A stretch of DNA of 64,000 nucleotides from positions 3,392 to 67,391 of the forward strand of contig URQZ01000006.1 in the NCBI GenBank assembly GCA_900550255.1. The letters run 5' to 3'. The stretch comes from an uncultured Mycoplasmatota bacterium. Its GTDB lineage: Bacteria; Bacillota_I; Bacilli_A; RF39; UBA660. Shown here piece after piece: positions 45,670 to 64,000 of the stretch. The stretch's first letter is position 1; each line of letters opens with the position of its first letter. A model generated the notes under the pieces. The model was not told where the DNA came from. It saw nothing but the letters and a program-made list of their open reading frames with translations, and did not search any database. A program made the position numbers and the translations under genes.

Positions 45670-45691
45670 GACAATTTATTTGTCTTTTTTT
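45668..45691 (+). terminator. Rho-independent terminator
   Basis: AAGACAA-tttat-TTGTCTT plus TTTTTTT. Confidence 0.65.
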
Positions 45692-46782: not shown

Positions 46783-46784
46783 AT

Positions 46785-47960
46785 TTATTCTCCTTTTATT
46801 GAATTTTCAACTGATCCCTTAGATAATAGACTGATATCAACATCAACATTTACCTTAATCTTAGGAAATACCTTATCATTCCAATTTTTTTGATTTTCGT
46901 TAAAATATTTAGGATATTTTTTATAGAACAAATTTCCAAATCCAAAGATATCTGATTTATATTTCTTTTGAATAGTACTAATAGCTTCCTCAACTTGTTT
47001 TTTTACTTTTTTTTCTGTTTTCTTTTCTATTTTAGTGATTACTTTTCCATTTTCTATATCTTTATTACAAGTTATTTCTCTAATAGCACCATCTGCTGTA
47101 ATTTTTATATTAATTATTGGTTTATTATTTTTTAGAGAACTTTTCATTGTCGCTTTCATTTGCGTTAAATCGGTCACGATATTTCCACTACCACATTTAT
47201 ATGATAGGATCATGTTGTCAACTTGATTTGATAGAATATTTATCCCTCTACTTTCATTTTTACTTATATATCCTAATAATTTATCTTTTTTAAAGATTCC
47301 AAGTTTATCTAATTTTGTTTTAGCTTTAGGTGATGATGTTTCTAATATTTTATTTTTTTCGCCTTCTTTTTCTTTTCCTATTATAGTAATTGTTGGAAGT
47401 ACTGGCTCTTTGCCTTTCTTTAGATAGTTTTCTATAAATTTACTGTATGTTATAGAAGTAGAAATAGCTTGTGATTCGTTTGAAATACTTATATTACTTG
47501 CTATACTTTGTCCTGGAAAAGATTCTAGTGGTGATAGTGTTTTAATAACATCTTTAGCTTTATCGTCTTTTGACAAAATAATATAAAATCTTTTTACTGA
47601 TTCAGGATTTCTGACAAAAAAATCAAGTGTATTTTTAAGACCATCTTTAGCTACTTTATCAGAGATAACAACAACTCCTAAATGGCCAATATAGATTTGT
47701 TTTGGAATTAAAAGTTCAATTTGTCTTAAGGCTCGTGAAATAGTAGGTCCCTTACCAGAATAAACAACATTTTGACTTTGTCCTTCTTTAGGACTTGTTT
47801 GAGCATTTTTTCCATTTGCTATTAAAATACTTACTTCATATCCATTATCATCTTTATCAACGGCAATAGCTGTTGCAATTGCGAGTTTGTTTAATTCTCT
47901 ATAGTTCCAGCACCCAGTTGTTAGAAAAAAAAGAGGGATTAAAAGTAATATTTTTTTCAT
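46785..47960 (-). CDS. Spore germination lipoprotein, Ger(x)C subunit
   Basis: 'FFLTTGCWNYRELNKLAIATAIAVDKDD' is the Ger(x)C lipobox and N-terminus. Confidence 0.8.
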   Translation of the reverse strand: MKKILLLIPLFFLTTGCWNYRELNKLAIATAIAVDKDDNGYEVSILIANGKNAQTSPKEGQSQNVVYSGKGPTISRALRQIELLIPKQIYIGHLGVVVISDKVAKDGLKNTLDFFVRNPESVKRFYIILSKDDKAKDVIKTLSPLESFPGQSIASNISISNESQAISTSITYSKFIENYLKKGKEPVLPTITIIGKEKEGEKNKILETSSPKAKTKLDKLGIFKKDKLLGYISKNESRGINILSNQVDNMILSYKCGSGNIVTDLTQMKATMKSSLKNNKPIINIKITADGAIREITCNKDIENGKVITKIEKKTEKKVKKQVEEAISTIQKKYKSDIFGFGNLFYKKYPKYFNENQKNWNDKVFPKIKVNVDVDISLLSKGSVENSIKGE

Positions 47961-49423
47961 TAATTATCAGCCTTTCTTTTTTTATTTTTAATATTTAAAA
48001 ACAGTGGCCTATTTTTAATTTTATTATTTGATTTTCTAATAATAGCGTAGTTTTGACTTTTAATATCAAAAGGAGAAATTGGAGATAAGTAGGAAACTCC
48101 TTGCATTTCTAGACTACATAGTTTGGTAATAAATATTAATCCAGCAATTATAAATCCAACTAATCCACAAAATAGTGAGAAGAAGATAAAGATGAATCGC
48201 CATAATCTTGTAGCGTTTACAAAATCTATATCAGTATATAAAAGACCACATATTGCAGTAATGGCAACAATTATAACAACAATTGGTGATATAATACCGG
48301 CTGCAACAGCAGCATCACCAAGTACTAATGCTCCAACAATACTTATGGCAGATCCCATCGAAGTAGGTATTCTTATATCGCTTTCTCTTAAAATTTCGAA
48401 GGTTGTAATTAACATGATTACTTCAAAGGCTGTAGGGAAGGGAACTCCTTCTCTTTGAATAGAGAGAGATATTAAGAGTTCATTTGGAATCACTTGTTGG
48501 TCAAAAGTAGTTATTGCAATATAGAAACTTGGTGTTATGATTGTTAAAATAAAGGCTATAATTCTTAAGATTCTTGTAAAGTTTGAATTTATTTCTCTTT
48601 GGTAATCATCTTCTGGAGATTGTAAATAATCAACAAATAGTGCTGGTGTTATTAAAACAAATGGAGAATTTTCAATTAGTATAATTATTCTTCCTTCTAA
48701 CAAGTATTTACTTGCTAAATCTGGTCTTTCTGTACTTTTAAGTTTAGGAAAGGCTGATTTTTGTTTTTCATTTATATATTCTCTTATAGTTCCACTATCT
48801 AAAATACCATCAATATCTATTGTTTGTAATTTCTTTTTTATTTTATCGACGTTTTTTTTGTCTACTATATCATTTATAAAGGCAATTGTTACTTTTGTTT
48901 TTGTTCTTCGACCTACAGTAGTTTCATCAAACCATAAGTTATAATCTTTGATTCTTTTTCTTATTAAACCCAGGTTAGTGGAATTGTTTTCAGTAAAGCT
49001 ATCTTTTGGTCCTCTTACAACTGATTCACTCGTTGATTCGGTTACACCACGATCTAGGGTATTTTTGGTTTCAACGACAATGGCTTTATTTTCTTTTTCT
49101 ACAAAAATAACAGTGTATCCGCTAGATAGGTGAAAACAGACATCATCATATGTTGTAACTATTTTTAAATGACTATTATAAATAGTGTTTTTTAATGATT
49201 TAAATAGGTTTTCAAAGAAAGAATGGCCATCTCTTTTTACATATTCTCCTAAATCTTTCATTAAAAAATCACTTATTTTATCATCACTACTTACACTTTC
49301 TAAATAGATATATAATATTTCTTTTTTATTTATTTTTATTTTTCTTGAAACAAGATCACTACTGTTTCCATATTTGTTTTGAATTGTTTCAAGTATTTTA
49401 TCTATATTTTTATCTAAATTCAT
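47960..49423 (-). CDS. Spore germination protein, GerAA/GerKA-type subunit
   Basis: GerA-family core 'PFPTAFEVIMLITTFEILRESDIRIPTSMGSAISIVGALVLGDAAV'. Confidence 0.8.
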   Translation of the reverse strand: MNLDKNIDKILETIQNKYGNSSDLVSRKIKINKKEILYIYLESVSSDDKISDFLMKDLGEYVKRDGHSFFENLFKSLKNTIYNSHLKIVTTYDDVCFHLSSGYTVIFVEKENKAIVVETKNTLDRGVTESTSESVVRGPKDSFTENNSTNLGLIRKRIKDYNLWFDETTVGRRTKTKVTIAFINDIVDKKNVDKIKKKLQTIDIDGILDSGTIREYINEKQKSAFPKLKSTERPDLASKYLLEGRIIILIENSPFVLITPALFVDYLQSPEDDYQREINSNFTRILRIIAFILTIITPSFYIAITTFDQQVIPNELLISLSIQREGVPFPTAFEVIMLITTFEILRESDIRIPTSMGSAISIVGALVLGDAAVAAGIISPIVVIIVAITAICGLLYTDIDFVNATRLWRFIFIFFSLFCGLVGFIIAGLIFITKLCSLEMQGVSYLSPISPFDIKSQNYAIIRKSNNKIKNRPLFLNIKNKKRKADN

Positions 49424-50756: not shown

Positions 50757-50969
50757 ACCCTTATAAATAAAGAGAAAACTAACTATTCAGTAGGGGTCAA
50801 AAAATGGTGAAAAAACGATAAAAAATTGATATTTTTATTGATTTTTGAAAAAAATATTGTTGAGGTTGTTTGTGGAGAATATGTTTCCTCATACTATATA
50901 AGATTGTATGTGTTGTAGAGTTAATAATAAATATAAATTATGAAAGCATGTTTTGAAAGAAGGAAAAAT

Positions 50970-51533
50970 ATGAAAAATATAATGATACTTGGAACTTGTA
51001 GAACAGGTAAAACTACATTTTCTAAATTATTACAAAAAGAACTAGAAAATTATCAAATTATAGAAGTTGATGCTATTATTTCGGCATTACAAAGCACTTT
51101 TGATGATATTCAGATTGGTTTTACTCATGATTATTTGAAATATAATAAATTATCTCAATTTATCAATATATTACTTCAAAAAAATAAAAGTAGATTAGGA
51201 AATGAATATAGTTATATAATTAATTCAGATTCAATAATGCCAGTGGATTTAATTAATTATTTTGATTTATCAAATACTATAGTTTATTATTTTGTGAATT
51301 CTAGTTTGACCGTTGAGGAAATATTTAATAATTGTAGATATTATGATGATGAAAATCAATGGACTTCAAAAAGAACAAATGAAAATTTATTAAATCATAT
51401 AAAAAAAGCAAAAGAATTTGAAAATCAAATAATAGAACAATGTAAAAAATATAATATGAAATATATTGATACATCTTATAACAGAGAAAGTATTTTTAAT
51501 GAATTGCTAAATGAAATAAAGGAGAATATATGA
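50970..51533 (+). CDS. P-loop kinase-like protein (small AAA/nucleoside-or-small-molecule kinase fold)
   Basis: Walker A 'ILGTCRTGKTTFSKLL'. ATG at 50970 follows AAGGAAAAAT. Confidence 0.55.
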   Translation: MKNIMILGTCRTGKTTFSKLLQKELENYQIIEVDAIISALQSTFDDIQIGFTHDYLKYNKLSQFINILLQKNKSRLGNEYSYIINSDSIMPVDLINYFDLSNTIVYYFVNSSLTVEEIFNNCRYYDDENQWTSKRTNENLLNHIKKAKEFENQIIEQCKKYNMKYIDTSYNRESIFNELLNEIKENI

Positions 51534-52087
51534 AAAATATAATAATAATTGGACCATCTAGAGTTGGAAAATCTACATTGGCATCTATATTGTGTGCGAA
51601 ATATAATTTTAATTATATGAGTGGTGATAGCATTAGAAATGCTTTCATTAATATATATCCTGAACTTGGATATACAGTAGAAAATACTATTGAGAATAAA
51701 GATTTTTGTAAATTTATTAACTTTATAATTAATGAAAACAATATACATTTAAAAAGAAATATTTATTATGTTATTGATTCGGCTGATATTTTAATTAAAA
51801 ATGCTAAAGAAATATTTAAAAATTCTTTAATAATTGGTATTGGATGTAAAGAAATTTCTGCTGAAAAATTGAAAAATAAAATATTAGAACATGATATTAA
51901 TCTTGATTGGACTTATGGATACCGTGAGGAAGATCTTTTATCTATTTCAAAAGAAACAATTAATAATAGTATAAATCTTTATAATGAATGTATTTTAAAT
52001 AATATTTGTTATTTTGATACTTCATTAGATAGATATGAAACATATAATGATATTTATAAATATATAGAAAGCAATATTGAGGTATAA
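51530..52087 (+). CDS. P-loop kinase-like protein, diverged tandem paralogue of the upstream gene
   Basis: 'MKNIIIIGPSRVGKSTLASIL'. Aligns along its length with the upstream protein (FINxxxxN..L......Y.I.S..I). ATGA overlap after AAGGAGA. Confidence 0.55.
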   Translation: MKNIIIIGPSRVGKSTLASILCAKYNFNYMSGDSIRNAFINIYPELGYTVENTIENKDFCKFINFIINENNIHLKRNIYYVIDSADILIKNAKEIFKNSLIIGIGCKEISAEKLKNKILEHDINLDWTYGYREEDLLSISKETINNSINLYNECILNNICYFDTSLDRYETYNDIYKYIESNIEV

Positions 52088-52089
52088 TT

Positions 52090-52686
52090 ATGGATAGAAT
52101 ATTTTTATTTGATCTTGGAAATGTTTTGGCAAAATCTTTAGATGATTATGGTTTGTATAACAAATTAAATTGTAAAATTCCCTATGATGAATTTTTAAAA
52201 TACTGGTGGGGTGATGAGTTAGTTTTAAAAGCTCATATGGGACTTGCTACAGATGATGAACATGTTGAAGCGTTATTGAAATTCTGTAAGAGTGATTTAT
52301 CAATTAAACAATTTTATGAAATATATAATGGTTTAGATAATTCTTTATATGATGATACTGTTGAAATTATAAATGACTTAAAAAATAAAGGGTATAAGAT
52401 CGGAATCTTATCCAATCTTAGATTAATGGATTACAAAAGATATAAACAACAAATTGAAAAAATAAATTTTGATTATATATTTTTATCATATGAAATGAAA
52501 TGTATAAAACCATCTAGCGATATTTATTTACAAGTGATTGATGTACTTGATTGTGAAGCAGATAATATAATATTTTTTGATGATAATCAAAGGAATGTAA
52601 ATGGCGCAAAACAACTTGGCATTAACGCTTATCAAGTAACAGGCGAAAATATAAAAGAAATTTTTTATAAAATAATAAATATATAA
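52090..52686 (+). CDS. HAD superfamily hydrolase, subfamily IA (YihX-like phosphatase)
   Basis: Motif I 'IFLFDLGNVL', motif II 'ILSN' and motif IV 'FFDDNQRNV'. Confidence 0.65.
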   Translation: MDRIFLFDLGNVLAKSLDDYGLYNKLNCKIPYDEFLKYWWGDELVLKAHMGLATDDEHVEALLKFCKSDLSIKQFYEIYNGLDNSLYDDTVEIINDLKNKGYKIGILSNLRLMDYKRYKQQIEKINFDYIFLSYEMKCIKPSSDIYLQVIDVLDCEADNIIFFDDNQRNVNGAKQLGINAYQVTGENIKEIFYKIINI

Positions 52687-52793
52687 TATAAATTTATGCT
52701 AATTGCTTTATAAGAAGATTAATACATACATAATAAACATTCTTAATAGTTATACGTTTATTATGAAGTAGTCAATTATAAACATACACATAA

Positions 52794-52871
52794 AATACAG
52801 TTATTCATAATAGACATTCATATCATGTTGAGTGTGTGACGATATTACATCGAAAAAAGATTGAAAAATAA
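52794..52871 (+). pseudogene. Remnant of an rlmD 3' terminus (encodes ...SYHVECVTILHRKKIEK*)
   Basis: Shares the 17-mer TATCATGTTGAGTGTGT at 52821..52837 with the rlmD 3' end and encodes the same YHVECV..L.R C-terminal motif. It sits in otherwise noncoding DNA. Confidence 0.45.
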
Positions 52872-53046
52872 AAGCTTTTGTTAGAATTGAAAATCAAGTT
52901 TAGATGGATAAGGTGACTCTACATTTAATGATAAAACATTTGTTGTTTTTGAAAGGCTTAAATTAATAAAAAATACAAAATGTAAATATAAATTGATGGA
53001 AATATTATTCTTTAATGATAAGACGTTTCAATAGAAGGAGTAAATA

Positions 53047-53841
53047 ATGGATTATAAACAAATAAACAAATTTGTAAAAGTGATACAAAAACATGAAAAT
53101 ATAAATGTTATGGTCAAAAATATTACAAGTGATACTATTTTATATAATTATCAAGAAAATAACATTTTTGTTTCTGCTAGTATTATAAAAGTTCCTATTA
53201 TGTTAGCTATATTAAATTATGTGTTGAATAGTGATATTAAATTATATAGTTACATTAATATAGATAAAGATGATATATTGAGTGATAATAAATGTTTTAA
53301 AAAGGAAATATATCAATATAGCATAGAAGAATTAATAACATGGATGATTACAGTGTCTGATAATTCATCTACAAATGTATTAATTAAATATTTAGGTTTT
53401 GAAAAGATTAACAAATATTTTAAAGAAATAGGATTAAAAAATACTAAATTAGAGAGATATATGCTTGATGAGGAAGCTATAAATAAAGGTAAAAATAATT
53501 ATACTTCACTAAACGATATGTATAAATGTTTTAAATATATAATAAATAAAGAAATTTTGACAAATGAATTTTGCGATTTAGCACTAAGTATATTATATAA
53601 ACAAAAGGTAAATAATCAAATTAATAAATATATTAAAAATATTAAATTTGCACATAAAACAGGATCCCTTGAGTATTTGAATAGTGATGTTGGCATTTTT
53701 GAATTAAATAAACAAATATATTTTATTGGAATTTCAGTATACGATACTCCAGAGAAAAATGGAGATCGAGAAAATGTTGGAAGATTATCCGAAATAATTT
53801 ATAAATATATTCTGGAGCAAAATTTATTATGTAGTAGTTAG
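53047..53841 (+). CDS. Class A beta-lactamase-fold serine hydrolase without a signal peptide
   Basis: 'SASIIKVPI' (SxxK), 'VSDNSSTN' (SDN) and 'HKTGS' (KTG). No N-terminal signal sequence. Confidence 0.6.
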   Translation: MDYKQINKFVKVIQKHENINVMVKNITSDTILYNYQENNIFVSASIIKVPIMLAILNYVLNSDIKLYSYINIDKDDILSDNKCFKKEIYQYSIEELITWMITVSDNSSTNVLIKYLGFEKINKYFKEIGLKNTKLERYMLDEEAINKGKNNYTSLNDMYKCFKYIINKEILTNEFCDLALSILYKQKVNNQINKYIKNIKFAHKTGSLEYLNSDVGIFELNKQIYFIGISVYDTPEKNGDRENVGRLSEIIYKYILEQNLLCSS

Positions 53842-53908
53842 TTACACAAAAACAATTATTTATAATTGATTATTATATGATTTAAGTGTAAAAAGAAAGG
53901 GAATAGCT

Positions 53909-54613
53909 ATGGATGTAAATAAAAAAATTTTTGTTAGTGATTATGATCAGACTTTTTATTTAAATGATGAAGATATAGAAAAAAATAAAATAGCTATAAA
54001 TGAATTTCGGAAAAAAGGAAATATTTTTGTTATTGCAACAGGCAGAAGCTATTTTGATTTTCAAAATAAAGTTGATGAATATAATCTCAATTATGATTAT
54101 GTAATTATAAATCATGGAGCAACAATACTAGATAAAAATAATAATATATTAATTAATTTTCCAATAAAAAATGAAATAATACCACATATAAAGAATGATT
54201 TGCAACTTGAAAAATCTATCAAAGGTTTTTGTTGCAGTGGATTAGAAAGTAGAGTTGATTTTAATCATAAAAACTTAACTAAAATAAATGCAAGATATAA
54301 TTCAAAAGAAGAAGCAATGAAAATAAATGATAATATTAATGCTAAATATTTTGAATTTGTCAATTCTTATTACGTTACAATAAATTCATTAGAAATAATA
54401 TCTAATAAAACTAACAAATCAAAAGCAATAGATTTGTTAATAAATAAATTAAAACTATCAAAAGAAAATGTATATACAATTGGTGATGGTTATAGTGATA
54501 TTGAAATGGTTAAAAATTTTAATGGTTATGCCATGAAAAAATCAGTTGATGAATTAAAAAAAGTGGCAAAAAAAGAATATGATAGTGTGTCGGAATTAAT
54601 AAATGAAATATAA
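53909..54613 (+). CDS. HAD superfamily hydrolase, Cof-like (subfamily IIB)
   Basis: 'IFVSDYDQTFY' (motif I DxD), 'VIATGRSY' and 'IGDGYSDIEM'. Confidence 0.65.
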   Translation: MDVNKKIFVSDYDQTFYLNDEDIEKNKIAINEFRKKGNIFVIATGRSYFDFQNKVDEYNLNYDYVIINHGATILDKNNNILINFPIKNEIIPHIKNDLQLEKSIKGFCCSGLESRVDFNHKNLTKINARYNSKEEAMKINDNINAKYFEFVNSYYVTINSLEIISNKTNKSKAIDLLINKLKLSKENVYTIGDGYSDIEMVKNFNGYAMKKSVDELKKVAKKEYDSVSELINEI

Positions 54614-54671
54614 TTATTATAAAAATAAGGAGAATTTTTATGATTAAGGAAGTTAAGAAAAGAAATTTAAT

Positions 54672-55196
54672 ATGAGTTTGTATGAAATTTTAAGTGATGA
54701 AAATGTTGTAGAAAGTATTAACAATAATTTAGATTATTTAGTAAAATGTATTCCTGAAATTAAATATATGATGGGTTTCGAACACAAACATCCACATCAT
54801 CATTTAGATGTATGGCAGCATACTTTATTAGCGCTTAATTTTTCTGAAATTGATTTTGATATAAGATTAACTCTTTTATTACACGACATAGGAAAACCTT
54901 TTTCATTTCAAGAGAAAGATGGAATAAGACATTTTAATGGACATCCAAAGGTTTCAGCTATTATGTCCTATGATATATTAAAAAGAATAGGTTTTGGAGA
55001 AGATTATATCCAAAAAATTTGTTATTATATTAAAAATCATGATAACCCCATATCTAATAAATTAATTGAAAATAATTATAATGATGCAATATTTCTTTAT
55101 AAAATTCAAAAATGTGATGTACTAGCTCATCACCCTGAAAAAATAGAAAAAAGAAAACAATATTTAAAAAAAATAGGTAGTAAATTACAAATTTAA
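54672..55196 (+). CDS. HD-domain phosphohydrolase (CCA-enzyme-type HD domain, stand-alone)
   Basis: 'HHHLDVWQHTL...LLLHDIGKPF'. Confidence 0.6.
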   Translation: MSLYEILSDENVVESINNNLDYLVKCIPEIKYMMGFEHKHPHHHLDVWQHTLLALNFSEIDFDIRLTLLLHDIGKPFSFQEKDGIRHFNGHPKVSAIMSYDILKRIGFGEDYIQKICYYIKNHDNPISNKLIENNYNDAIFLYKIQKCDVLAHHPEKIEKRKQYLKKIGSKLQI

Positions 55197-55296
55197 TAAA
55201 TGGCAATAGTTTTTTTAAAATAATTTAAATGTAATTATAAAAAAGTAATTATTAAAACTTAATTTGTTTGATATATTAATAGTATAATCAATTTAG

Positions 55297-55435
55297 GAAA
55301 CTTCAATTGTTTGGGTATCTACTCCTATCTTTATTGGTAGCGGTTATAAAAAAATGACACTCATTCAATGAGTGTCGCATCTAAATTATTTAGGTAGACA
55401 TTCAACTCGCAAAATTGAATGTTTCCTTTTTATTG
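55297..55435 (+). ncRNA. Candidate structured RNA, about 140 nt. A 12-bp closing stem (GGAAACTTCAATTG / CAATTGAATGTTTCC, one bulge) encloses an internal hairpin GACACTCA-ttcaa-TGAGTGTC and ends in a U-run.
   Basis: Read directly. Preceded by -10 TATAAT at 55283..55288. Lies upstream of pncC. No family could be assigned. Confidence 0.3.
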
Positions 55436-55611
55436 TATACAAATTTTGTTGACAAATACACGATAACATAAGAAATTTTTTTTGACAAGTTGATAGATTG
55501 CTTTTTAATCATTATTTTCAATATGTTTTGATTTAGTACAATAAAAAACATTAGTAGAAAAAAAGTAAACTTTATAGTACAATAGTATTAATTAATAAAA
55601 TAAGAAAGAAG

Positions 55612-56085
55612 ATGGAAATTTTGAAAGAAATTGTAAATAAATTAATTGAAAAACATATGACTATTTCTACAATGGAGTCTTGTACAGGGGGTTTTGTTGT
55701 TAATGCTATAACTAATATAGAAGGGGCTAGTGAAGTCTTAAAATATAGTGCGATAACTTACTCAAATGAATTTAAAGAGAAAATGGGTGTTGCTAAAAAA
55801 ATAATAGATAAATATAGTGTTTATAGTAAAGAAGTAGCAGATGAAATGAGTAAAAAAATAAGTGCCTTTACAAATTCAGATTATTCTATAGGTGTAACTG
55901 GAAAACTAAATAGAGTAGATGTTAACAATATAAGTGGAGAAAATAATAAGGTTTATTTTAGTATTTATGATAAAAATAACGATAAAATCTATTCCTATGA
56001 ATTATATGTTGATAAGAAAAATAGAATTGAAAATAAAGAACAAGTATTAGAAAAAATAATAAAAGAGTTAAAAAAAATAATATAA
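55612..56085 (+). CDS. pncC: CinA C-terminal domain protein (nicotinamide-nucleotide amidohydrolase PncC-like)
   Basis: 'MTISTMESCTGGFVVNAITNIEGASEVL' is the CinA_C motif. Confidence 0.75.
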   Translation: MEILKEIVNKLIEKHMTISTMESCTGGFVVNAITNIEGASEVLKYSAITYSNEFKEKMGVAKKIIDKYSVYSKEVADEMSKKISAFTNSDYSIGVTGKLNRVDVNNISGENNKVYFSIYDKNNDKIYSYELYVDKKNRIENKEQVLEKIIKELKKII

Positions 56086-56113
56086 AGCTTAATTATATTT
56101 AAAAAATAATTAA

Positions 56114-56143
56114 AAAAGTTTCTTGATTAACTTTTTTTTTTTT
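56114..56143 (+). terminator. Rho-independent terminator
   Basis: AAAAGTT-tcttgatt-AACTTTT plus an 11-T run. Confidence 0.7.
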
Positions 56144-56186
56144 ACTTTTTAGTTTATACTATATATGTAAAGATAGGGGTGGCATT

Positions 56187-57767
56187 GTGATATTAAGAAA
56201 ACCATTTGCATTTTTTATTAAACATTTTAGATTTATCCATCTAATTCTTGCTATATGTGCTGTTTATTTAATTACAAAAACTAATGCAATTCTTAGTTTT
56301 TATTTAGAATACATGGATATAATGTCAATTTCACCTGGTACTTCAGTTTCAACTGATTTGTTTAATAGTATGTTATGGATTAGTACTATTGTTATTATTT
56401 TAGGTAGCATTTTAATCGCATTTCTTATGAAATTTAAGAAAAAGCCAATTCGTTTTTATAAAATTAATATTATAGTTTATATTGTATTGATTTTAATATA
56501 TATATTCGCACATGGTACTATTAAAAGTTTAGAAATAGGACTAGTTGATATTAGAACTTTAAAAATGGTTCAAGATTTTCTTGTTATTGCTATGATTCTT
56601 CAAGTGCCAAGTACAATATCACTAGTAATAAGAGCTTTAGGGTTTGACATTAAAAAATTCGATTTTGAAAGGGATTTAGAAGAACTAGAAATCACTTCTG
56701 AGGACAATGAAGAAATAGAAGTTAACTTAGAATTTGATTTTGATAAATTTAAAAGAAATATAAGAAAACAAATTCGTCATTTTAAGTATGTGTACTTTGA
56801 GAATAAAACTATAATTAATGTTATATTTACAATTTCTTTAGTTATTATAGGTATAATAGTTTATTTAAATATAGGTGTTTATAATCGAGCATATCATGAA
56901 AATCAAAGATTTAATGTTACAAACTATCAGATTAGTGTTAATGATTCATATCAAGTTAAAACTGATTATAATGGAAACTCAATAGAGAATAAAGCTTCTT
57001 TTATTGTTGTAAGTTTAAAATTAAAAAGCAATTATTTAGATAAGACAAAATTTGAGACGGCACGAATAGCTCTTGAAATAAATAAACATTTATTTTATCC
57101 ACAAAAAGATTATAAAACGGAATTTAGTGATTTAGGGACACTTTATACTAATCAAAATATTACAAAAGATGATAATAATTATATAGTTGTTTTTGAAATA
57201 CCAAGTACTTATCAAAACAAGAAAATGAAATTAAAATATTTTGATTACAATGATAAAGAAGTAACTATTAATATAAAACCAAATAGTTTTAAAGACTCAA
57301 AATTATATAATTACAATTTAGGTGATACTATTAAACTTAATGATAGTATTTTAGGAAATACAACTTTAAAAATTGATTCATTAGAAGTAAATGATTATTT
57401 TAAAAGTAATTATAAATTATGTATAGATGGTAATTGTATTGATTCATATGAATATTTAGTTCCAACTTATACGGGTAATGAAGATAAGGCTTTAATTAAG
57501 GTTACAGGAAATCTTAATTGGGATAAAAATAAAAAAATAAGTGAAATTGATAATTTATATAAATTTATTGAAATTTATGGTAAAGTTTCTTATGTTTTAA
57601 ATGGAGAAGAAAAAGATGTGAATATTAATTTAAAACAAGTAAAACCTAATAAGGTAAGTGATGATAATACTTATTACATAGAGGTAAATAAGGAAGTTAA
57701 AGATGCAAGTAAAATTTATCTTAGTTTTGTAATACGTGATAAAGAATATAAATATGCTGTTAAATAA
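56187..57767 (+). CDS. Membrane protein: 4-5 N-terminal TM, an acidic linker, then a large extracytoplasmic beta-rich domain
   Basis: GTG start after AGGGGTGG. Function unknown. First gene of the putative Tad-like locus. Confidence 0.5.
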   Translation: MILRKPFAFFIKHFRFIHLILAICAVYLITKTNAILSFYLEYMDIMSISPGTSVSTDLFNSMLWISTIVIILGSILIAFLMKFKKKPIRFYKINIIVYIVLILIYIFAHGTIKSLEIGLVDIRTLKMVQDFLVIAMILQVPSTISLVIRALGFDIKKFDFERDLEELEITSEDNEEIEVNLEFDFDKFKRNIRKQIRHFKYVYFENKTIINVIFTISLVIIGIIVYLNIGVYNRAYHENQRFNVTNYQISVNDSYQVKTDYNGNSIENKASFIVVSLKLKSNYLDKTKFETARIALEINKHLFYPQKDYKTEFSDLGTLYTNQNITKDDNNYIVVFEIPSTYQNKKMKLKYFDYNDKEVTINIKPNSFKDSKLYNYNLGDTIKLNDSILGNTTLKIDSLEVNDYFKSNYKLCIDGNCIDSYEYLVPTYTGNEDKALIKVTGNLNWDKNKKISEIDNLYKFIEIYGKVSYVLNGEEKDVNINLKQVKPNKVSDDNTYYIEVNKEVKDASKIYLSFVIRDKEYKYAVK

Positions 57768-57848
57768 TGTCAAATTTATAAAATTTTTGTTTGTGAATTT
57801 TATTAGATGATGTTATAATGATACTAGTACTATTATAGGAGGGAATAT

Positions 57849-58475
57849 ATGAAGAAAAGAGCATTTATAATGATGTCATTTATATGTTTATTAGTATTTC
57901 CTTTTAGTATTAAAGCTTTTTGTTATAGCAAGGATAAAATTAAGTTTCAAAAATTAGCTGAAAATATTGATTATACTTATACTTTTGATGAAAATACTAA
58001 AACATTTAATATTATTTTTACTAATCTTCAAACTAGTCTTTCTCTTAATGAAGTAGTTTATCCTGATCAGGAGACGACTCTTACTGGTTTTATACCTGGT
58101 AATAGTTATAACTTTGTGGTTAAGACAAATGATAGTTCTTGTTATGATGAAACAATTAAAACTATATATGTTAATTTACCTATTTATAATGCAAATTATA
58201 ATGATCCTTTATGTCAAGGATTACATGATTATGATATTTGTCAAAAATGGGGAAAGTATATTAGTAATAGAAGTGAGTTTGAAAAACAAGTTCAAAAAAT
58301 AAATAGTAGTACAAAAGAAGATAATAGTGAAGAAGAAACACAAAAAGAGTATAAAGGAATATTTGATTATTTAGCCAATATTTTTGTTAATTCATATTAT
58401 GTTGTTTTACCAATTATAATTGTAATTTGTTTGTTTGGTATTTATAGATTGAATAAAAAGGAAAAATTGTTTTAG
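57849..58475 (+). CDS. Cys-rich secreted/membrane-anchored protein (signal peptide plus C-terminal TM)
   Basis: 'MKKRAFIMMSFICLLVFPFSIKA' signal peptide, 8 Cys, C-terminal 'YYVVLPIIIVICLFGIY'. Preceded by -10 TATAAT and RBS AGGAGGG. Confidence 0.5.
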   Translation: MKKRAFIMMSFICLLVFPFSIKAFCYSKDKIKFQKLAENIDYTYTFDENTKTFNIIFTNLQTSLSLNEVVYPDQETTLTGFIPGNSYNFVVKTNDSSCYDETIKTIYVNLPIYNANYNDPLCQGLHDYDICQKWGKYISNRSEFEKQVQKINSSTKEDNSEEETQKEYKGIFDYLANIFVNSYYVVLPIIIVICLFGIYRLNKKEKLF

Positions 58476-58485
58476 GAGGTAGAAA

Positions 58486-61338
58486 ATGAAAAAAAAGATT
58501 TTAAGATTATTTATTTGTTTTTTAGCTGCTATCAGTTGCTTTTTATTTAATAATGACATTGTTAAGGCAGATGATGAAATAGAAATTGATTCAAACGGAA
58601 CCCCTGGTAGTGGTGGAAAAGATCCCTGTGATCCATGGTCATATGTTTGTATTTACAATTACGCAGCTTTTAAGGTTACTTATTATCCTGCAAAGGGAGC
58701 CCCAAAATCTAAAATTTATTATACTGATAAGTATAAATCAAATCCATTCAGCAAAAATGGTTTAAATGGAACAAAAGACAGGAATGGTTTTTCCAAAACG
58801 AAAGATACGAAAGCTAAGGAAATTAATTTTCAAAAAATGGGGCTTGGAATTGTTCCTAAAAGTTTTACTTCCGTAGCAGCTCAGGGAATGTATGAAAAAT
58901 TATGGAATAAGATGACTGATCCAAATAGTAAATTAGTTAATGAAATTTTTAGTGATTTGACTGGTGCTAATGGAAACATTGCTGAATTTGTTAAAAACCA
59001 TAAAGATGATTATTTCTTTGTTGAACCTCTTTATCAAGTTAAAATTCAAAAGTGGAAAGATGCTCAAATTGCAGTTCATACTAAACAAGGAAAATTTAAA
59101 AGTTATTTGGGAACTACATATGGGGTTGCGCATCAGGTATCTGTAATAAGTTTTAACGAATGTAAAAGTAGTGGTGGTAGCAATTGTGACGAGATATATT
59201 TTAGTCGTAAAGAAAAATATCATGTTTCTAGAATTGCTAATAGTCTAAGACTAGAAAAAAAAGTTAAAGTAGGCAGTGTAGAATTAGCCGCGGGAACTCC
59301 TAAGGCAAAAAAAGGAACAACAAAAATGAATGATTTAATAAAAGATAATAAGGGATACGGAATAGGAGCAATAAAATTACGATCATATCCTGTTCCTGAT
59401 GAACCACCAGAAGATCAAAATAGCGGAACTTGTTATTCATATTTTGAAAAAAAATCCCCGGCTTCATGTGAAAAAGAAACAGATAGTTATCAGACGGAAA
59501 TAGAAGAAGTTACAGTTGGAGAATCTACACCAAATGCAAAGTCTTGCTCTGATGACAATTTAAATTCAGATGGTAGTCATCAGAGTCAATCTATTTATGG
59601 TAAAAAGACAGATAGAACTGCAGGTGGTATCCAAGTTGGTAATTATTGTGCTATTTATTGTACAAAAAATATAAAATTTTCTACTGATATTGGGAAGATA
59701 GTTGGTGTAAAAGAAATTTCGCCACTTCCAAATATAACTAATAGTTCGACAGCTTATACACAAAATTTGAAGATAGAAAAAGAAGTGAAATACACATGCC
59801 ATGCAGATGTGACAAAATATTATGGGGCTGATAAACCAACTGATGATTGGTTTACAAGTTTAAGTGGTAATAATTATGCCCAAGCTTATTATGAAATAGA
59901 AAAAATAAAAAAACGATATGATATGGCTCAAGCCCTAAACTCATCCGATAGTAATATTGAAGAATATAAAAAGGCAGAGGCAAAAATTATAAGTGAATTA
60001 TACTTTTGTGCTTATTATGAGGTTTTTAAATCTGAATTTGAAAATTCAACTGACTCTTTTTTAAAAATAAAAATAGGTAATACTGAAAAAGAATTAACCG
60101 CAAACAATTTGATAAATAGAGAAAATGAATTTGTTTCACCAAAAAAAACATCCCCATTTAATAGTTGGTATGATATTTTGTGGGATGGTTCCAGCGATTT
60201 TGGAGAACATATAAAAAATGTGGAACGACTAGTTAATGATATAATCAATCAAGGTTACACATATTATACAAGCTCAGATATTTATTCGCTAAAATCAACC
60301 TCCAAATATGGCTTAGATTTAACACAAAAAGATTCAATTGACAATAAGAAGGAATATGGAAACGTTGCTGATGATAATATTAATGATAATAGTGTTTGTA
60401 AAATAAAACAAAAACTAAAAGATAATGGTCAAACAGAAAATACAGCTAAGATTTCAATAGTAGGCCATGACAATCTGGTTTGTACAGAAAATGATGATAA
60501 AACAATAGAATATTCACCTAATATAGTTGCTGAATGTCCTGCTAATACATATCATGCTGGAACAAATGCATATTATTGGTTGGCGAATAGTTTAATAACT
60601 GATGATTCTTTGAAGAAAAAAGCGTTAGACGGAGTAAACAGTACAGAGGCAATTGATATGTTTTGTAATAATAAAACATTAGAAAAATTTGATGGCGGAT
60701 ATGAACAGATAATAAATGAAGATGGTAGTGCTGTTTTAGATGATTGTTTGATGGCTGGAGTACCATTAAAGCAATGTCAAAAAAATGCTGGTAAAACCTA
60801 TGAATGTACAGATGTGCAAGGTATAAAAACTGACGTTAGTTATTTTGTCTATTTGAAAGCCAAAGAAAAAAGTATTGATTTTAGCAATATAACACAAATG
60901 AATACAATACTAAAATCAATTGAAAAAGAAAATCCTTATTGTAATGATTCTTGCTATAATGGAGATAAAAATTCAAAAACGTTTGTTTATAGAACTATAT
61001 CATTAGGAGATAAAAAAACATCTTTTCCAGGTAAAAATGGAAACGGACGAACTCCTGGATCAAATTGGAATTCTGATAGTTTAATTGAAAAAATTATCAC
61101 AAATAGACAAGATGTTTATAATAATGAACCAATGTATGAAATTGTTTTGGATTATTCAACGTTGAAAAATGTTAGAAGTGATAACAAAAAAATAAAATAT
61201 GATTATGGAAATTTTAATAATTTAGAATGCAATGAAAATGGAACAGCTTGCATTAGTAAATTTTTAAGGGAAAATATTAGCGTTAATGGAAGATGTTCTA
61301 AGCTTGGTCGAGAAAATTTTTATACTAATTGTAATTAA
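58486..61338 (+). CDS. Large (950 aa) Cys-rich secreted protein, candidate pilus-associated adhesin
   Basis: Signal peptide 'MKKKILRLFICFLAAISCFLFNNDIVKA' and many Cys pairs. No recognisable enzymatic motif. Confidence 0.5.
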   Translation: MKKKILRLFICFLAAISCFLFNNDIVKADDEIEIDSNGTPGSGGKDPCDPWSYVCIYNYAAFKVTYYPAKGAPKSKIYYTDKYKSNPFSKNGLNGTKDRNGFSKTKDTKAKEINFQKMGLGIVPKSFTSVAAQGMYEKLWNKMTDPNSKLVNEIFSDLTGANGNIAEFVKNHKDDYFFVEPLYQVKIQKWKDAQIAVHTKQGKFKSYLGTTYGVAHQVSVISFNECKSSGGSNCDEIYFSRKEKYHVSRIANSLRLEKKVKVGSVELAAGTPKAKKGTTKMNDLIKDNKGYGIGAIKLRSYPVPDEPPEDQNSGTCYSYFEKKSPASCEKETDSYQTEIEEVTVGESTPNAKSCSDDNLNSDGSHQSQSIYGKKTDRTAGGIQVGNYCAIYCTKNIKFSTDIGKIVGVKEISPLPNITNSSTAYTQNLKIEKEVKYTCHADVTKYYGADKPTDDWFTSLSGNNYAQAYYEIEKIKKRYDMAQALNSSDSNIEEYKKAEAKIISELYFCAYYEVFKSEFENSTDSFLKIKIGNTEKELTANNLINRENEFVSPKKTSPFNSWYDILWDGSSDFGEHIKNVERLVNDIINQGYTYYTSSDIYSLKSTSKYGLDLTQKDSIDNKKEYGNVADDNINDNSVCKIKQKLKDNGQTENTAKISIVGHDNLVCTENDDKTIEYSPNIVAECPANTYHAGTNAYYWLANSLITDDSLKKKALDGVNSTEAIDMFCNNKTLEKFDGGYEQIINEDGSAVLDDCLMAGVPLKQCQKNAGKTYECTDVQGIKTDVSYFVYLKAKEKSIDFSNITQMNTILKSIEKENPYCNDSCYNGDKNSKTFVYRTISLGDKKTSFPGKNGNGRTPGSNWNSDSLIEKIITNRQDVYNNEPMYEIVLDYSTLKNVRSDNKKIKYDYGNFNNLECNENGTACISKFLRENISVNGRCSKLGRENFYTNCN

Positions 61339-61356
61339 TGAAAGGAGTTAATAAAA

Positions 61357-61776
61357 ATGAAAGAAACATATTGGTTAATTTTAATTCTTATATTAGGTGT
61401 TATATGCATTGCATTTATTAACTTCTTTCAAACTTATACAAATACTGATGAACAAAACTATATGCTTTTAAAAGAAGTTACAGAAGCTGCTATGTATGAT
61501 GCAGTTGATGTAAGAGCATATAAAGCTTATGGAACTGTATCTATAAGTAGAGAAAAATTTGTAGAAAGCTTCGTTAGAAGATTTTCTGAAAGTGTAACTT
61601 TAGGTAATACATATGTTATTGATATATATGATGTTAATGAAACACCGCCTAAAGTTAGTTTAAAAGTCTCAACAAAATTAAGATCTAATGTAACTGCTGT
61701 TAGTTTTAGTAAGAGTCAAGTTATAGATTTTGATATTGAGAATAAATTAGATGCGATATTAGAAACAACTTATTAA
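61357..61776 (+). CDS. Small protein with an N-terminal TM helix (TadE/pseudopilin-like candidate)
   Basis: 'MKETYWLILILILGVICIAFINFF' then a ~110-aa soluble domain. Positioned before cpaB. Confidence 0.4.
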   Translation: MKETYWLILILILGVICIAFINFFQTYTNTDEQNYMLLKEVTEAAMYDAVDVRAYKAYGTVSISREKFVESFVRRFSESVTLGNTYVIDIYDVNETPPKVSLKVSTKLRSNVTAVSFSKSQVIDFDIENKLDAILETTY

Positions 61777-61796
61777 TTAGAAAGGAAGAGAAAATA

Positions 61797-62675
61797 ATGA
61801 ATAATTTTATGATTTCGCTAAAAAGATTTTTTAAAAACAAAAATACAGTTACAATTTTAGGAGTTTTAGCTGTAATATTAATTTTATTTTTTGGGTATCG
61901 TTACCAAATAAATAAAATGGTAAGTCCTGTTAAGGATATTCCTATTTCTACTAAGACAATTCAACCAAGAACAGAAATAACAAAAGATATGATTGAATAT
62001 GTAGATATTGCACCAGTAGTATTACAAAAAGGTGATATAATTCAATCATCGAGTGCAATTATAGGAAAATACAGTAACTATAATACTGTAATTCCAAAAG
62101 GAAGTTTCTTTTACAAAGATACAGTAATTGATGAAGCAAAACTTCCAGATTCAGCTTTTGTAAATTTGAAAAAAGGAGAAATTCCTTATAACTTCCCAGT
62201 AGATATGGACTCTACATATGGAAATTCAATATTCCCAGAAAATTATATTGATATTTACATGAAAGCTAATAATGAAGAAGGAAAATTAATGGTTGGAAAA
62301 TTAATTGAAAACGTTAAAGTTTTAGCTGTTAAAGATTCTTCAGGTAAACATGTTTTCGAAAATACAGAAGAAGATAGACAACCAGCATATTTAATATTTG
62401 GTGTTAAGTCTGAAATTAATATTTTACTTAGAAAAGCAAGCTATATGGGAAATTACTCAGTAGTATTATTCCCAGTACCACATGGAGTAGAAGTAAAGGC
62501 AAAAGAAGGAGAAACAATGGTTACATCTCAAACATTAAAAGACTTTATAAATGCTAATACTGTTCCAAATGATGAAATCGAAGATGCAACAAAAGACGAA
62601 ACAAAAAAAACAACAGATAAAACAACAACAGATAAAACAACTAAAACAACAAAAACTACTAAGAAATCGAGTTAA
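61797..62675 (+). CDS. cpaB: Flp pilus assembly protein CpaB/RcpC-like (N-terminal TM, SAF-like domain, Thr/Lys-rich tail)
   Basis: 'TEITKDMIEYVDIAPVVLQKGDIIQSSSAIIGK' is SAF-like, and 'ENVKVLAVKD' parallels the CpaB 'LQNVRVLAV' motif. C-terminal 'KTTDKTTTDKTTKTTKTTKK'. Confidence 0.55.
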   Translation: MNNFMISLKRFFKNKNTVTILGVLAVILILFFGYRYQINKMVSPVKDIPISTKTIQPRTEITKDMIEYVDIAPVVLQKGDIIQSSSAIIGKYSNYNTVIPKGSFFYKDTVIDEAKLPDSAFVNLKKGEIPYNFPVDMDSTYGNSIFPENYIDIYMKANNEEGKLMVGKLIENVKVLAVKDSSGKHVFENTEEDRQPAYLIFGVKSEINILLRKASYMGNYSVVLFPVPHGVEVKAKEGETMVTSQTLKDFINANTVPNDEIEDATKDETKKTTDKTTTDKTTKTTKTTKKSS

Positions 62676-62680
62676 TTATA

Positions 62681-64000
62681 GTGAATGATAATTTATTTTC
62701 ACAAATCGATTTTGGAGCACTAAAAGAATATCTTGAAAACGATGACGTTACAGATATTTCTTATAGTAATAATGGACAACTCTGGATAAAAACTTTATCA
62801 AAAGGATTATTCAGAGTTGAAAATCCAAATATTAATAATGCATTTATTGAAAAGTTAGCTTTTCAATGCTCTAATGTTATGGGTAAGAGTTTTAATATGG
62901 CACATCCTTTTCTAGATGCAGAAGGAGCTGAACTACGTCTTAACTTCGTTCATGATTCTATAGCTAAAAATGGAATTGCAGTGGTTATTCGTAAGACACC
63001 AGCTAAAATTCGTCTTGAAAAAGATAAATTATTAAGAGAAAAATATATTGATTTAGATATACATGATTTTTTAATAAAATGTGTTCATGGTCATTGTAAT
63101 ATAATTGTCTCAGGAGAAACTGGGTCAGGTAAAACAGAATTTGTTAAATACTTGGCTGCACATACAAAAGAAGATGAAAAAATAATTACGATTGAAGATA
63201 CATTAGAACTTCATCTTGATAGAATTTTCCCACATAGAGATATTGTTGCAATGAAAACAAATAATATAGCTTCATATTCCGATGTTTTAGTTACTTGTAT
63301 GAGACAGAATCCTAAATGGATTTTACTATCGGAGGTACGTAGTGCTGAAGCTGTAATGGCTGTTAGAAACTCAATTTCTTCTGGTCATTATATTTTATCA
63401 ACAATTCATGCTGATAAAGCTTCATCAATACCTAACCGTATGTATAGTTTGCTTGAAACTAATCAAGACATAAATCAATTCTTGAAATCAATTTATAGAT
63501 ATATTCAATTAGGTGTATACATTCGTGGATTTCAAGATAAAGCAACTAAACACTTTGTACGTGAAATAGCAGAAGTAACAGAGTTTTATGTAACAGAAGA
63601 TAATGAAGCAAAATATAATACGATTTATCGTAAATCAACTTCTGGAAAAGTAACAAGAAAACACCCAACAAAATATCTTATTGATTATCTAGATGCGCAA
63701 GGTGTTACTTTAAATCAAAATGAAATACAAGATTCTGAAACAGTTGTTAGTAGGGATTTTAGTGTATTTGCTGAGGAAGATAAAGAAAAAATTCAACAAC
63801 AAATGGTAAATCAAAATCCTACTACAAATCAAGCTAGACCAGGTATTATAAATAATAATCAAATGCCTAATGTAAATCAGGCTAAATCAAACAATCAAAG
63901 AGTTGCTAGTCAAAATGTTAGAGTTGTTCCAACTAATCAAGTTAGACAAGCTCAACCAAGGATAACACCAACCAGTGTTATTAAAGCACAACCTAGTGTT
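62681..64000 (+). CDS. CpaF/TadA-family secretion ATPase (type II/IV secretion NTPase), 3'-truncated by the window edge, with a Q/N/P-rich C-terminal extension
   Basis: Walker A 'VSGETGSGKTE', Asp box 'KIITIEDTLEL', His box 'SGHYILSTIHAD' and 'ILLSEVRSAEA'. GTG start. The tail '...NQARPGIINNNQMPNVNQAKSNNQRVASQNVRVVPTNQ' runs to the window end. Confidence 0.65.
   Translation, partial: MNDNLFSQIDFGALKEYLENDDVTDISYSNNGQLWIKTLSKGLFRVENPNINNAFIEKLAFQCSNVMGKSFNMAHPFLDAEGAELRLNFVHDSIAKNGIAVVIRKTPAKIRLEKDKLLREKYIDLDIHDFLIKCVHGHCNIIVSGETGSGKTEFVKYLAAHTKEDEKIITIEDTLELHLDRIFPHRDIVAMKTNNIASYSDVLVTCMRQNPKWILLSEVRSAEAVMAVRNSISSGHYILSTIHADKASSIPNRMYSLLETNQDINQFLKSIYRYIQLGVYIRGFQDKATKHFVREIAEVTEFYVTEDNEAKYNTIYRKSTSGKVTRKHPTKYLIDYLDAQGVTLNQNEIQDSETVVSRDFSVFAEEDKEKIQQQMVNQNPTTNQARPGIINNNQMPNVNQAKSNNQRVASQNVRVVPTNQVRQAQPRITPTSVIKAQPSV

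Follow-up and report, generated by a model that had tools for sequence, protein, structure and literature searches.

Introduction

The conjugation operon of the pLS20 family of plasmids is the nearest described frame for a gene cluster that begins in a 64,000-nucleotide stretch of DNA (hereafter, the window) from an uncultured Mycoplasmatota bacterium of the RF39 lineage (GenBank assembly GCA_900550255.1, contig URQZ01000006.1, positions 3,392 to 67,391 of the forward strand). In the pLS20-family operon, genes 36 and 38–47 are listed as unknown (Val-Calvo et al. 2021, PMC8557374), and the adhesin Tie is required for efficient pLS20 conjugation (PMC11730352). According to the pLS20 literature, conjugation in Gram-positive bacteria appears to proceed without a pilus-like structure. 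In addition, Miller et al. (2022, PMC9523054) have predicted a "secretion-related" operon with a CpaF-type ATPase, a PilC/GspF-type protein, and a DUF5411 protein in gut Firmicutes of the genera Roseburia, Ruminococcus, and Eubacterium. Our literature search returned no description of the cluster in RF39-type bacteria, and nothing on RF39 with a type IV secretion system (T4SS) or a pilus, nor on DUF4320.

Six co-directional genes fill the 3′ end of the window from position 56,187 onwards, and the initial annotation had taken them for the start of a Tad/Flp pilus locus. This turned out differently: the six genes are the 5′ quarter of a cluster of about 28 kb and about 25 co-directional genes, of which about 20 kb lie beyond the window, and the cluster runs into a Gram-positive T4SS with VirB6/TrbL-like, split VirB4, hydrolase, and VirD4 genes. 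The locus is probably a pLS20-type Gram-positive T4SS cluster with an embedded Tad-like module. The type of system is already known from plasmids, where its Tad-like half is unannotated; new are the setting, which is chromosomal, relaxase-less, and deeply conserved in uncultured gut Bacilli with small genomes, the addition of a CpaB-like gene, and the Cys-bearing hypervariable set of surface proteins.

Gene Content of the Cluster

The open reading frame (ORF) listing places all six genes on the plus strand at the coordinates first proposed, and, together with hydropathy, it agrees with the described topologies, including transmembrane (TM) helices and an ATPase gene that continues past the window end:

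56187..57767, plus strand: TM526, 526-aa membrane protein, GTG start; usual first gene of the cluster
57849..58475, plus strand: C208, 208-aa protein; signal-like N-terminus, extracytoplasmic domain containing four invariant Cys, TM anchor at the C-terminus
58486..61338, plus strand: C950, 950-aa secreted protein with 26 Cys; hypervariable
61357..61776, plus strand: DUF5411 protein, 139 aa (Pfam PF17424, E = 9e-50), one N-terminal TM helix
61797..62675, plus strand: CpaB/RcpC-like protein, 292 aa, with an N-terminal TM helix, an SAF/RcpC-type domain, and a Thr/Lys-rich tail
62681..64000, plus strand: CpaF/VirB11-superfamily ATPase, GTG start; cut by the window end, 472 aa at full length in contig L004

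The genes beyond the window were read on contig L004, which is 100% identical to window positions 51797–64000, together with contig L011 of the same species. For comparison across species, an alignment of the ATPase was scanned against one genome per species, and 80 loci from 80 species, all of them metagenome-assembled genomes (MAGs), were retrieved from that scan; the loci vary in the reach of the fetched DNA.

TM526 shows about five TM helices within residues 7–234, followed by a C-terminal domain of about 290 aa predicted to be extracytoplasmic; no Pfam or NCBIfam family matches it, and the plasmid search returned no homologue. C208 carries a signal-like segment at its N-terminus and a TM helix at residues 174–203 near its C-terminus; it has no family match in Pfam or NCBIfam, and all 66 sequences compared conserve four of its six Cys (Cys25, 98, 122, and 131). 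The hydropathy of C950 reveals a signal-like N-terminal segment and nothing further; 18 of its 26 Cys are invariant in 49 aligned sequences, and just 90 relatives are detectable among 5.8 billion proteins. The Cys of C208 and C950 are largely invariant, but their content is modest, only about twice the background (2.9% in C208 and 2.7% in C950 versus 1.3% in the remaining 55 proteins of the window, with up to 3% in some), and the label "strongly Cys-rich" was rejected.

The 139-aa protein is not motif-less but a clear member of the Pfam family DUF5411, and in this type of module its gene is placed directly upstream of that of the ATPase, or of the CpaB-like gene where present. The assignment of the 292-aa protein as CpaB/RcpC-like was corroborated by a match to TIGR03177 CpaB (E = 4e-6), by a score of 28.5 bits against Pfam RcpC (cut-off 28.8), by its orthologues, which match RcpC in 28 of 31 cases and SAF in 7 of 31, and by a tail with 13 Thr and 9 Lys among the last 37 residues. 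An identical 292-aa sequence was found on many human-gut metagenome contigs. The ATPase (98 bits against PF00437) does carry the annotated motif VSGETGSGKTE and a Q/N-rich tail (Q plus N = 32% over the last 117 residues); its core (residues 1–355) is about 81% identical between species, and the tail is variable. This Q/N/P-rich tail (window 63746–64000; L004 11950–12303) differs in length, with whole proteins of 360–490 aa across species, and in the closest species, it terminates in a conserved IENLESMFE sequence that may be a short docking motif.

On L004, the ATPase gene is followed by genes for two polytopic proteins of 300 and 263 aa (TM300 and TM263), a YfhO-family protein (in some strains), a 50-aa prepilin-like protein (pilin50), two N-terminally anchored proteins of 135 and 146 aa (pp135 and pp146), a soluble protein of 343 aa, a VirB2-like protein, a protein of 371 aa, and a Cys-rich VirB2-like protein of 211 aa. 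From there, the cluster can be followed on L011 through genes for a TrbL/VirB6-like protein (726 aa), proteins of 108 and 187 aa, a 594-aa VirB4, a 561-aa SpoIID-domain hydrolase, a 259-aa protein, a 686-aa VirD4, and two further VirB2-like fusion proteins, after which come a rhodanese gene and housekeeping genes.

Two features of this downstream part deserve separate mention. The YfhO-family membrane protein (L004 14123–16567, window-equivalent ~65919–68363; Pfam 401 bits), encoded between TM263 and the pilin-like gene, is limited to the window strain, L004, L006, and 5 of the 80 other species; strains with it carry the 50-aa pilin allele and strains without it a 68–75-aa allele. Speculatively, it may glycosylate the pilin or another exposed part. 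In addition, the first VirB2-like gene is immediately followed by a terminator-like hairpin and T-run (L004 19210–19226), the sole plus-strand site of this kind across 17 kb of the cluster.

T4SS Components

The channel and coupling genes were recognized by family models. The 726-aa VirB6-like protein matches TrbL_4 with 32 bits (cut-off 27), its best NCBIfam families being MMCAP2_0566 and Mbov_0396, with scores below the curated cut-offs. VirB4 matches AAA_10 and P-loop_TraG in Pfam, is 22% identical to the pLS20-family VirB4 (E = 1e-31), and is split into a 187-aa ORF (L011 12486–13049) and a 594-aa ORF (L011 13049–14833) that cover the N- and C-terminal parts of a single NCBIfam model, NF045975, for the VirB4 of Mycoplasma integrative conjugative elements (ICEs). 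Against this model, the pieces reach 360 and 58 bits, and VirB4 scores 182 bits with NF045971 and 74 bits with TIGR00929, the scores with all three models being below the equivalog cut-offs. Of the 80 loci, most of which end before this part, 34 yielded a homologue of the 187-aa ORF and 29 one of the 594-aa ORF. VirD4 scores 195 bits against PF02534 (T4SS-DNA_transf) and 313 bits against NF045973 (conju_CD1115), exceeding the 250-bit cut-off of the latter. The profile of the VirB3-like 108-aa family matches the DUF5592 protein of plasmid pZB18 (E = 3e-3), and within the VirB2-like family, 8 of 36 members match T4SS_pilin, with a best E value of 1e-6. The hydrolase is a SpoIID-domain protein in this species, and in others it carries SpoIID and CHAP domains, or NlpC/P60 and glucosaminidase plus M23 domains. 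No effector, toxin-immunity pair, or ComEC-type channel was identified within the cluster.

Collinearity with Plasmid Conjugation Operons

A tblastn search with the ATPase core against 72,556 plasmids returned as best matches proteins annotated as "VirB11-like" or "CpaF/VirB11 family" ATPases of pLS20-family Bacillus and Enterococcus plasmids, with identities of 30–33% and E values from 1e-36 to 1e-47. The Glu after GKT, which had been singled out as unusual, is real but not distinguishing, as the Walker A sequence GETGSGKTE is common to the cluster ATPase and the VirB11-like ATPases of Gram-positive conjugative plasmids.

In pBatNRS213, a member of the pLS20 family, the operon opens with the Tie adhesin, small proteins, gene 36, the VirB11-like ATPase, and two polytopic proteins; it continues with a DUF4320 protein, 47-aa single-TM proteins, a T4SS_pilin protein, VirD4, an extended VirB6, and DUF5592, and it ends with a 192-aa protein, VirB4, VirB8, VirB1, and the relaxase. 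Gene 36 of this plasmid encodes a 126-aa protein with an N-terminal TM helix that matches DUF5411 (E = 6e-5), and our DUF5411 family profile recovers it at E = 1e-7, as well as the gene preceding the ATPase in pZB18. Profiles of the other module families match syntenic genes in pBatNRS213 and pZB18, too (ATPase 1e-52, TM300 1e-3, TM263 1e-4 to 1e-5).

Homologues of the CpaB-like protein with about 30% identity were found on 365 plasmids, mostly of Bacillus, some of them annotated as RcpC/CpaB. On pBMB65 of B. thuringiensis, the order is an 849-aa unannotated protein, DUF5411, the CpaB-like protein, an AAA_31 ATPase, a T2SSE ATPase, two TM proteins, and DUF4320, and the cluster profiles match at 1e-40 (CpaB), 3e-34 (ATPase), 1e-16 (TM300), 2e-14 (TM263), and 8e-9 (DUF5411), with pp135 and pp146 matching the DUF4320 protein at about 1e-5.

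Relationship of the Module to Tad and Type IV Filament Machines

A sequence search of the PDB with the ATPase gave CpaF as the top match (63 bits), followed by the VirB11 protein HP0525 (59), an archaeal GspE (59), and FlaI (57), and the best NCBIfam models were VirB11 (118 bits) and TadA-conjugal (102 bits), both far below their cut-offs. Counterparts of TadB and TadC had been expected downstream, and two polytopic proteins are indeed there, of which TM300 is GspF-like by its model; neither has a sequence match to T2SSF. The AlphaFold2 model of TM300 (pLDDT 81, pTM 0.72) has as its only credible PDB matches in Foldseek the cytoplasmic domains of EpsF (GspF), with a probability of 0.92 and a target-normalized TM score of 0.61 over the whole 112-residue target, the remaining matches having a probability of at most 0.14. 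The Pfam T2SSF domain is also absent in the distant relatives and plasmid homologues of TM300 and TM263.

In three families of small proteins, the leader M-[KR]-[EQ]-x-x-G precedes a stretch of about 22 hydrophobic residues. The family of the smallest proteins combines a near-invariant N-terminal helix (MKEAxG-EANxTVV...) with a variable Cys-containing head, a layout resembling that of type IV pilins. The N-terminus of its 50-aa member lacks E-Y/F at positions +5/+6, and neither this candidate nor its 39 orthologues match Flp (PF04964). Of the further Tad parts expected downstream, neither Flp-type pilins nor a prepilin peptidase was found in the cluster, TadV was not detected there, and the CpaB-like family profile had no match in the PDB. 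Overall, there is a fair probability that the module works like a Tad-type assembly machine; that it belongs to the Tad/Flp family is not demonstrable.

The distant metagenomic relatives of TM300 sit in the same type of module, once apparently without a T4SS (L108). In this distant module, a thioredoxin-like protein (L108 2693–3175) was observed, which fits disulfide formation in Cys-bearing exposed proteins. Separately, a 326-aa protein with a weak N_methyl match adjoins the L32 gene about 7 kb past the 3′ end of the cluster in L102 (20474–21454); it hints at a separate Com- or type-IV-pilus-type system, and hence at a prepilin peptidase elsewhere in the genome.

Chromosomal Setting

In three species whose VirD4 proteins are 71–99% identical, the cluster ends at VirD4, with or without VirB2-like genes, and is followed by the same rhodanese gene and by housekeeping genes. 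In these species, neither the cluster nor the 10 kb or so past its 3′ end revealed a relaxase, integrase, primase, or replication gene, the sole serine recombinase seen being 8 kb away, behind housekeeping genes (L105). Likewise, tblastn searches with Rel, Aux, Tie, Ses, VirB8, VirB1, and VirB6 of the pLS20 family gave no matches in 1.9 Mb of retrieved DNA. The upstream neighbors are housekeeping genes that differ between species; among 54 loci, ScpA/ScpB were found in 15 and an integrase never, and CinA occupies this place in the present species only. The flanking genes comprise CinA, ScpA/ScpB, rhodanese, CdaA/YbbR, RmuC, and pyruvate kinase. Since the cluster has housekeeping flanks, a conserved rhodanese neighbor, no relaxase, integrase, or replication gene, and the same GC content as the rest of the window, the sequence data point to a long-resident chromosomal feature rather than to a recent mobile element.

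Distribution, Conservation, and Variability

The scan detected relatives of the ATPase in no fewer than 547 species-level genomes. Most of the 80 MAGs retrieved are labelled Bacilli, Tenericutes, Mollicutes, Firmicutes, or Bacillales, and about 10 carry other labels (Muribaculaceae, Ignavibacteriales, Clostridia, Roseburia sp.); their sources include deer, sheep rumen, rabbit, chicken, a human-gut catalogue, and Hadza samples. One of them, L088, is a circular 1.26-Mb chromosome, and another is Candidatus Fimihabitans, which GTDB places in the order RF39 (PMC8035907).

The conservation and synteny of the block, the mapping of which the initial annotation had suggested, were followed across the retrieved loci. 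The gene order 02-03-04-05-06-07-08-09-11-12-13-14-15-18-19-20-21 is maintained in almost all loci that are long enough, and the order from TM526 to VirB4 nearly everywhere that the fetched DNA extends. TM526 heads the cluster in 67 of the 80 species (median identity to the window strain 36%), C208 is present in 65 (30%), and the DUF5411 protein in 79 (55%). The T4SS genes stay attached where the DNA reaches, the TrbL-like gene in 51 loci, that of the 108-aa protein in 38, and VirB4 in 29. Median identities to the window-strain proteins are 82% for VirB4, 81% for the ATPase (65–87% over the matched segments of the 80 loci), 73% for TM300, 67% for TM263, and 60% for the CpaB-like protein, and they fall to 30–36% for TM526, C208, and C950.

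Variability was also seen within the species. TM526, C208, the CpaB-like protein, and the 343-aa protein are 99–100% identical between strains, whereas identity is 68–89% for C950, 60–64% for the pilin-like 50-aa protein (100% in one strain), 33–59% for pp135, 61% for pp146 (95% in that same strain), and 66–82% for the VirB2-like protein VirB2-like137. Such hypervariability of C950, the pilin-like proteins, and the VirB2-like protein is what diversifying selection or allele exchange would be expected to produce in exposed parts.

Interpretation

According to the mechanism that we propose for a T4SS cluster with an embedded Tad-like module, the VirB11/CpaF-clade ATPase would dock on the two platform-like polytopic proteins, TM300, with its predicted GspF-like cytoplasmic bundle, and TM263, and together they would drive the assembly of a short filament or pseudopilus, the subunits of which may be the small prepilin-like protein and the two DUF4320-like N-anchored proteins. 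The DUF5411 and CpaB/RcpC-like proteins would be membrane-anchored assembly or wall-spanning parts, and TM526, C208, and C950 would be surface components, with C950 as the putative contact or adhesin protein in the place of Tie. Contact would bring a partner cell to the translocation channel, likely made up of the VirB6/TrbL-like protein, the VirB3-like 108-aa protein, split VirB4, VirB2-like proteins, and the peptidoglycan hydrolase, and the VirD4 coupling protein would feed the substrate into it. The front proteins, C950 above all, are proposed as the contact part by analogy with Tie because of their position at the operon head, where adhesins stand in pLS20 and pZB18, their invariant Cys, and their extreme variability; a role of TM526 and C208 as membrane anchor or export helper for C950 is a guess. 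On their own, the filament and adhesin steps are less certain.

Several observations weigh against this proposal. C950 shows no similarity to Tie or to a known adhesin fold. The Foldseek E value of the match between TM300 and EpsF is 1.2, and neither TM300 nor TM263 has a sequence match to T2SSF, to the other, or to PDB chains. No convincing pilin family was identified, archaeal Pilin_N being matched in 5 of 40 members with E values of at least 0.007, as expected of hydrophobic noise, and the missing prepilin peptidase is borne out by the lack of an A24 Pfam match in the cluster genes and of a GxGD-type motif in window ORFs of at least 60 aa. The 343-aa protein was considered as a TadZ candidate and rejected, as it matches neither ParA/AAA_31 (Pfam, NCBIfam) nor, in a profile search, any PDB entry. 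A filament is something that the cluster components would form judging by their resemblances, vertical descent is read from synteny and flanks rather than from co-phylogeny, and with no relaxase in or beside the cluster (3′ flanks of the three species; 1.9 Mb of retrieved DNA), DNA transfer is only putative.

The same front genes could be explained by a stand-alone variant Tad/Flp pilus or secretion system, with the Cys-rich proteins as cargo or tip and the T4SS genes as mere neighbors. The CpaB/RcpC-like protein, an ATPase with no closer PDB relative than CpaF, the GspF-like fold of the TM300 model, and the prepilin-like N-termini would suit such a system, as would the L108 module, apparently alone and with housekeeping genes next to it within the contig, and the 8–9-gene operon with CpaF, PilC-GspF, and DUF5411 reported in Clostridia (PMC9523054). 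However, the T4SS genes lie on the same strand with short gaps and remain attached as far as the retrieved DNA extends, the same fusion is found in the conjugation regions of the pLS20 family, pZB18, and pBMB65, and no Flp, TadV, or TadZ signatures were found in the cluster. As the Walker A signature and the closest annotated relatives of the ATPase are those of conjugative VirB11-like ATPases and the operons are collinear, we regard a stand-alone Tad/Flp locus as very unlikely; what survives of the earlier idea of a variant pilus system with adhesin cargo are the Tad-like genes and the variable front proteins. It is likewise improbable that an ICE, or its remnant, moves the cluster between genomes. 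All recognizable homologues are, it is true, conjugation proteins of plasmids and ICEs, the CD1115-family VirD4 lies above the curated cut-off, and the 5′ neighbor varies, but genes for relaxase, integrase, primase, and replication are missing from the cluster and from about 10 kb past its 3′ end in three species, the pLS20 relaxase and auxiliary proteins have no match in the retrieved DNA, rhodanese and ScpA/ScpB recur as neighbors, the GC content is like that of the flanks, and the ATPase family spans hundreds of species with high identity. For the initial annotation, an ATPase grouping with conjugative VirB11 or competence ATPases inside a mobile element would have spoken against its view, and our results agree with the grouping with conjugative VirB11-type ATPases but reveal no sign of a mobile element.

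A further explanation concerns function and overlaps with a pLS20-type T4SS cluster rather than excluding it: the T4SS would be domesticated and non-conjugative, serving DNA uptake or release, or protein delivery to bacteria or host cells, with the Tad-like module as its contact device. We consider this possible, though doubtful. It would fit a relaxase-less chromosomal cluster kept in hundreds of small-genome species (1.26 Mb in L088), the high conservation of the ATPase and VirB4 motors, and the diversification of exposed parts within species, as expected for partner or receptor recognition or for immune or phage pressure; on the other hand, neither effectors or toxin-immunity pairs nor a ComEC-type channel were identified in the cluster, the genome may hold a relaxase at another site, and CD1115-family VirD4 proteins are typical of DNA-transfer systems. 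Two linked readings, tentative when taken together, would be that the cluster is a domesticated, relaxase-less T4SS joined to a type-IV-filament machine and serves small-genome gut Bacilli, RF39 included, as a core, vertically inherited contact organelle, and that genes 36–41 of pLS20-type plasmids encode a Tad-like conjugative pilus. If the first is true, it would be an organelle for the exchange of chromosomal DNA or for the uptake or delivery of macromolecules with neighboring cells, with partner specificity set by the hypervariable C950, pilin-like, and VirB2-like proteins; if the second is true, these plasmid genes would form the very pilus-like structure that Gram-positive conjugation appears to lack.

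The evidence bears on how Gram-positive donors make contact: it suggests that genes 36 and 38–47, together with the VirB11-like ATPase, form a type-IV-filament-like assembly module with a CpaB-like partner, a predicted GspF-fold platform, and prepilin-like subunits. Moreover, in uncultured gut Bacilli with genomes of some 1.2 Mb, the 28-kb machine takes up about 2% of the genome and is kept in at least 547 species. That the machine is so widely kept, with no relaxase beside it and with diversifying exposed parts, points to an important contact-dependent function. For annotation, this means that "CpaF/CpaB" matches in Firmicutes need not denote a Tad pilus and can point to a T4SS instead.

Other Features of the Window

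Between the genes for a tRNA methyltransferase and a HAD phosphatase, differing cassettes were observed within the species (L001–L005, ~684–2089, versus window 50940–53841): some strains have a RhuM-family gene and small genes, and in the window strain, the cassette comprises two P-loop kinase-like genes along with a HAD hydrolase gene and a beta-lactamase-like gene. By eye, three ORFs on the minus strand (45676–49423) resemble a gerA-type spore germination operon and two on the plus strand (42168–43267) resemble spmA/spmB, suggesting that the organism makes spores and has a cell wall. A long co-directional run of glycosyltransferase, ABC-transporter, and dTDP-rhamnose-type genes (88–28284, also by eye) is likely a cell-wall or capsular polysaccharide locus. 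Finally, a promoter scan found sites to be rarer than in shuffled sequence and was uninformative in this AT-rich DNA.

Comparison with Known Systems

With the Tad/Flp systems (Caulobacter Cpa, Aggregatibacter Tad), the cluster has in common the superfamily of its ATPase, a CpaB/RcpC-type protein, a pair of platform-like proteins that are separate and single-domain (cf. TadB and TadC), and short pilin-like and N-anchored pseudopilin-like subunits. It differs from them in having no Flp match, no G/xxxxEY motif, no detectable TadV or TadZ, and no T2SSF-recognized platforms, in an ATPase equally close to VirB11 and to archaeal FlaI/GspE, and in the embedding of the module in a T4SS. The Mycoplasma ICEs provide the best NCBIfam matches for VirB4 and the VirB6-like protein, all scores being below the curated cut-offs. 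These elements carry a DDE transposase and are not known to have a Tad-like module. The operon of Roseburia and its relatives (PMC9523054), compared by its description, differs from the cluster in having 8–9 genes and an internalin-like protein, with no T4SS part reported.

Closer likeness was found on plasmids. The B. thuringiensis/cereus module of pBMB65 has five proteins clearly homologous by profile and a large protein in front, with TcpD-family and "conjugal transfer protein" genes about 8–12 kb downstream; unlike the cluster, it is plasmid-borne, is associated with a Tcp-type T4SS rather than one of the pLS20/Mycoplasma-ICE type, and has a recognizable ParA-type (AAA_31) ATPase. The vanA conjugative plasmid pZB18 of Enterococcus faecium is similar from the front (SpaA-type adhesin, small proteins, CpaF/VirB11 ATPase, two TM proteins) through to the rear (small N-anchored proteins, a TrbC/VirB2 family protein, a CD1115 VirD4, a pLS20_p028-type VirB6, DUF5592, VirB4, and hydrolase), and it differs in being plasmid-borne, in its MOBP relaxase typing, and in having no CpaB-like gene detected by profile search.

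Compared with the pLS20 family itself, the cluster is chromosomal, has no relaxase, Aux proteins, Rap/Phr/Rco regulation, or surface-exclusion gene nearby, adds the CpaB/RcpC-like gene and the 343-aa protein, carries VirD4 at its 3′ end and a split VirB4, has several VirB2-like paralogues fused to Cys-rich domains, and has in C950 a front protein without similarity to the thioester adhesin Tie. The gene order is otherwise shared: a large surface protein stands ahead of the DUF5411-like gene (gene 36) and of the VirB11-like ATPase (gene 37), which is 30% identical and has the GETGSGKTE motif too, and after these come the polytopic pair (genes 38 and 39), an N-anchored DUF4320 protein (gene 40), small proteins, and T4SS-pilin-like, VirD4, VirB6-like, VirB3-like, VirB4, and hydrolase genes.

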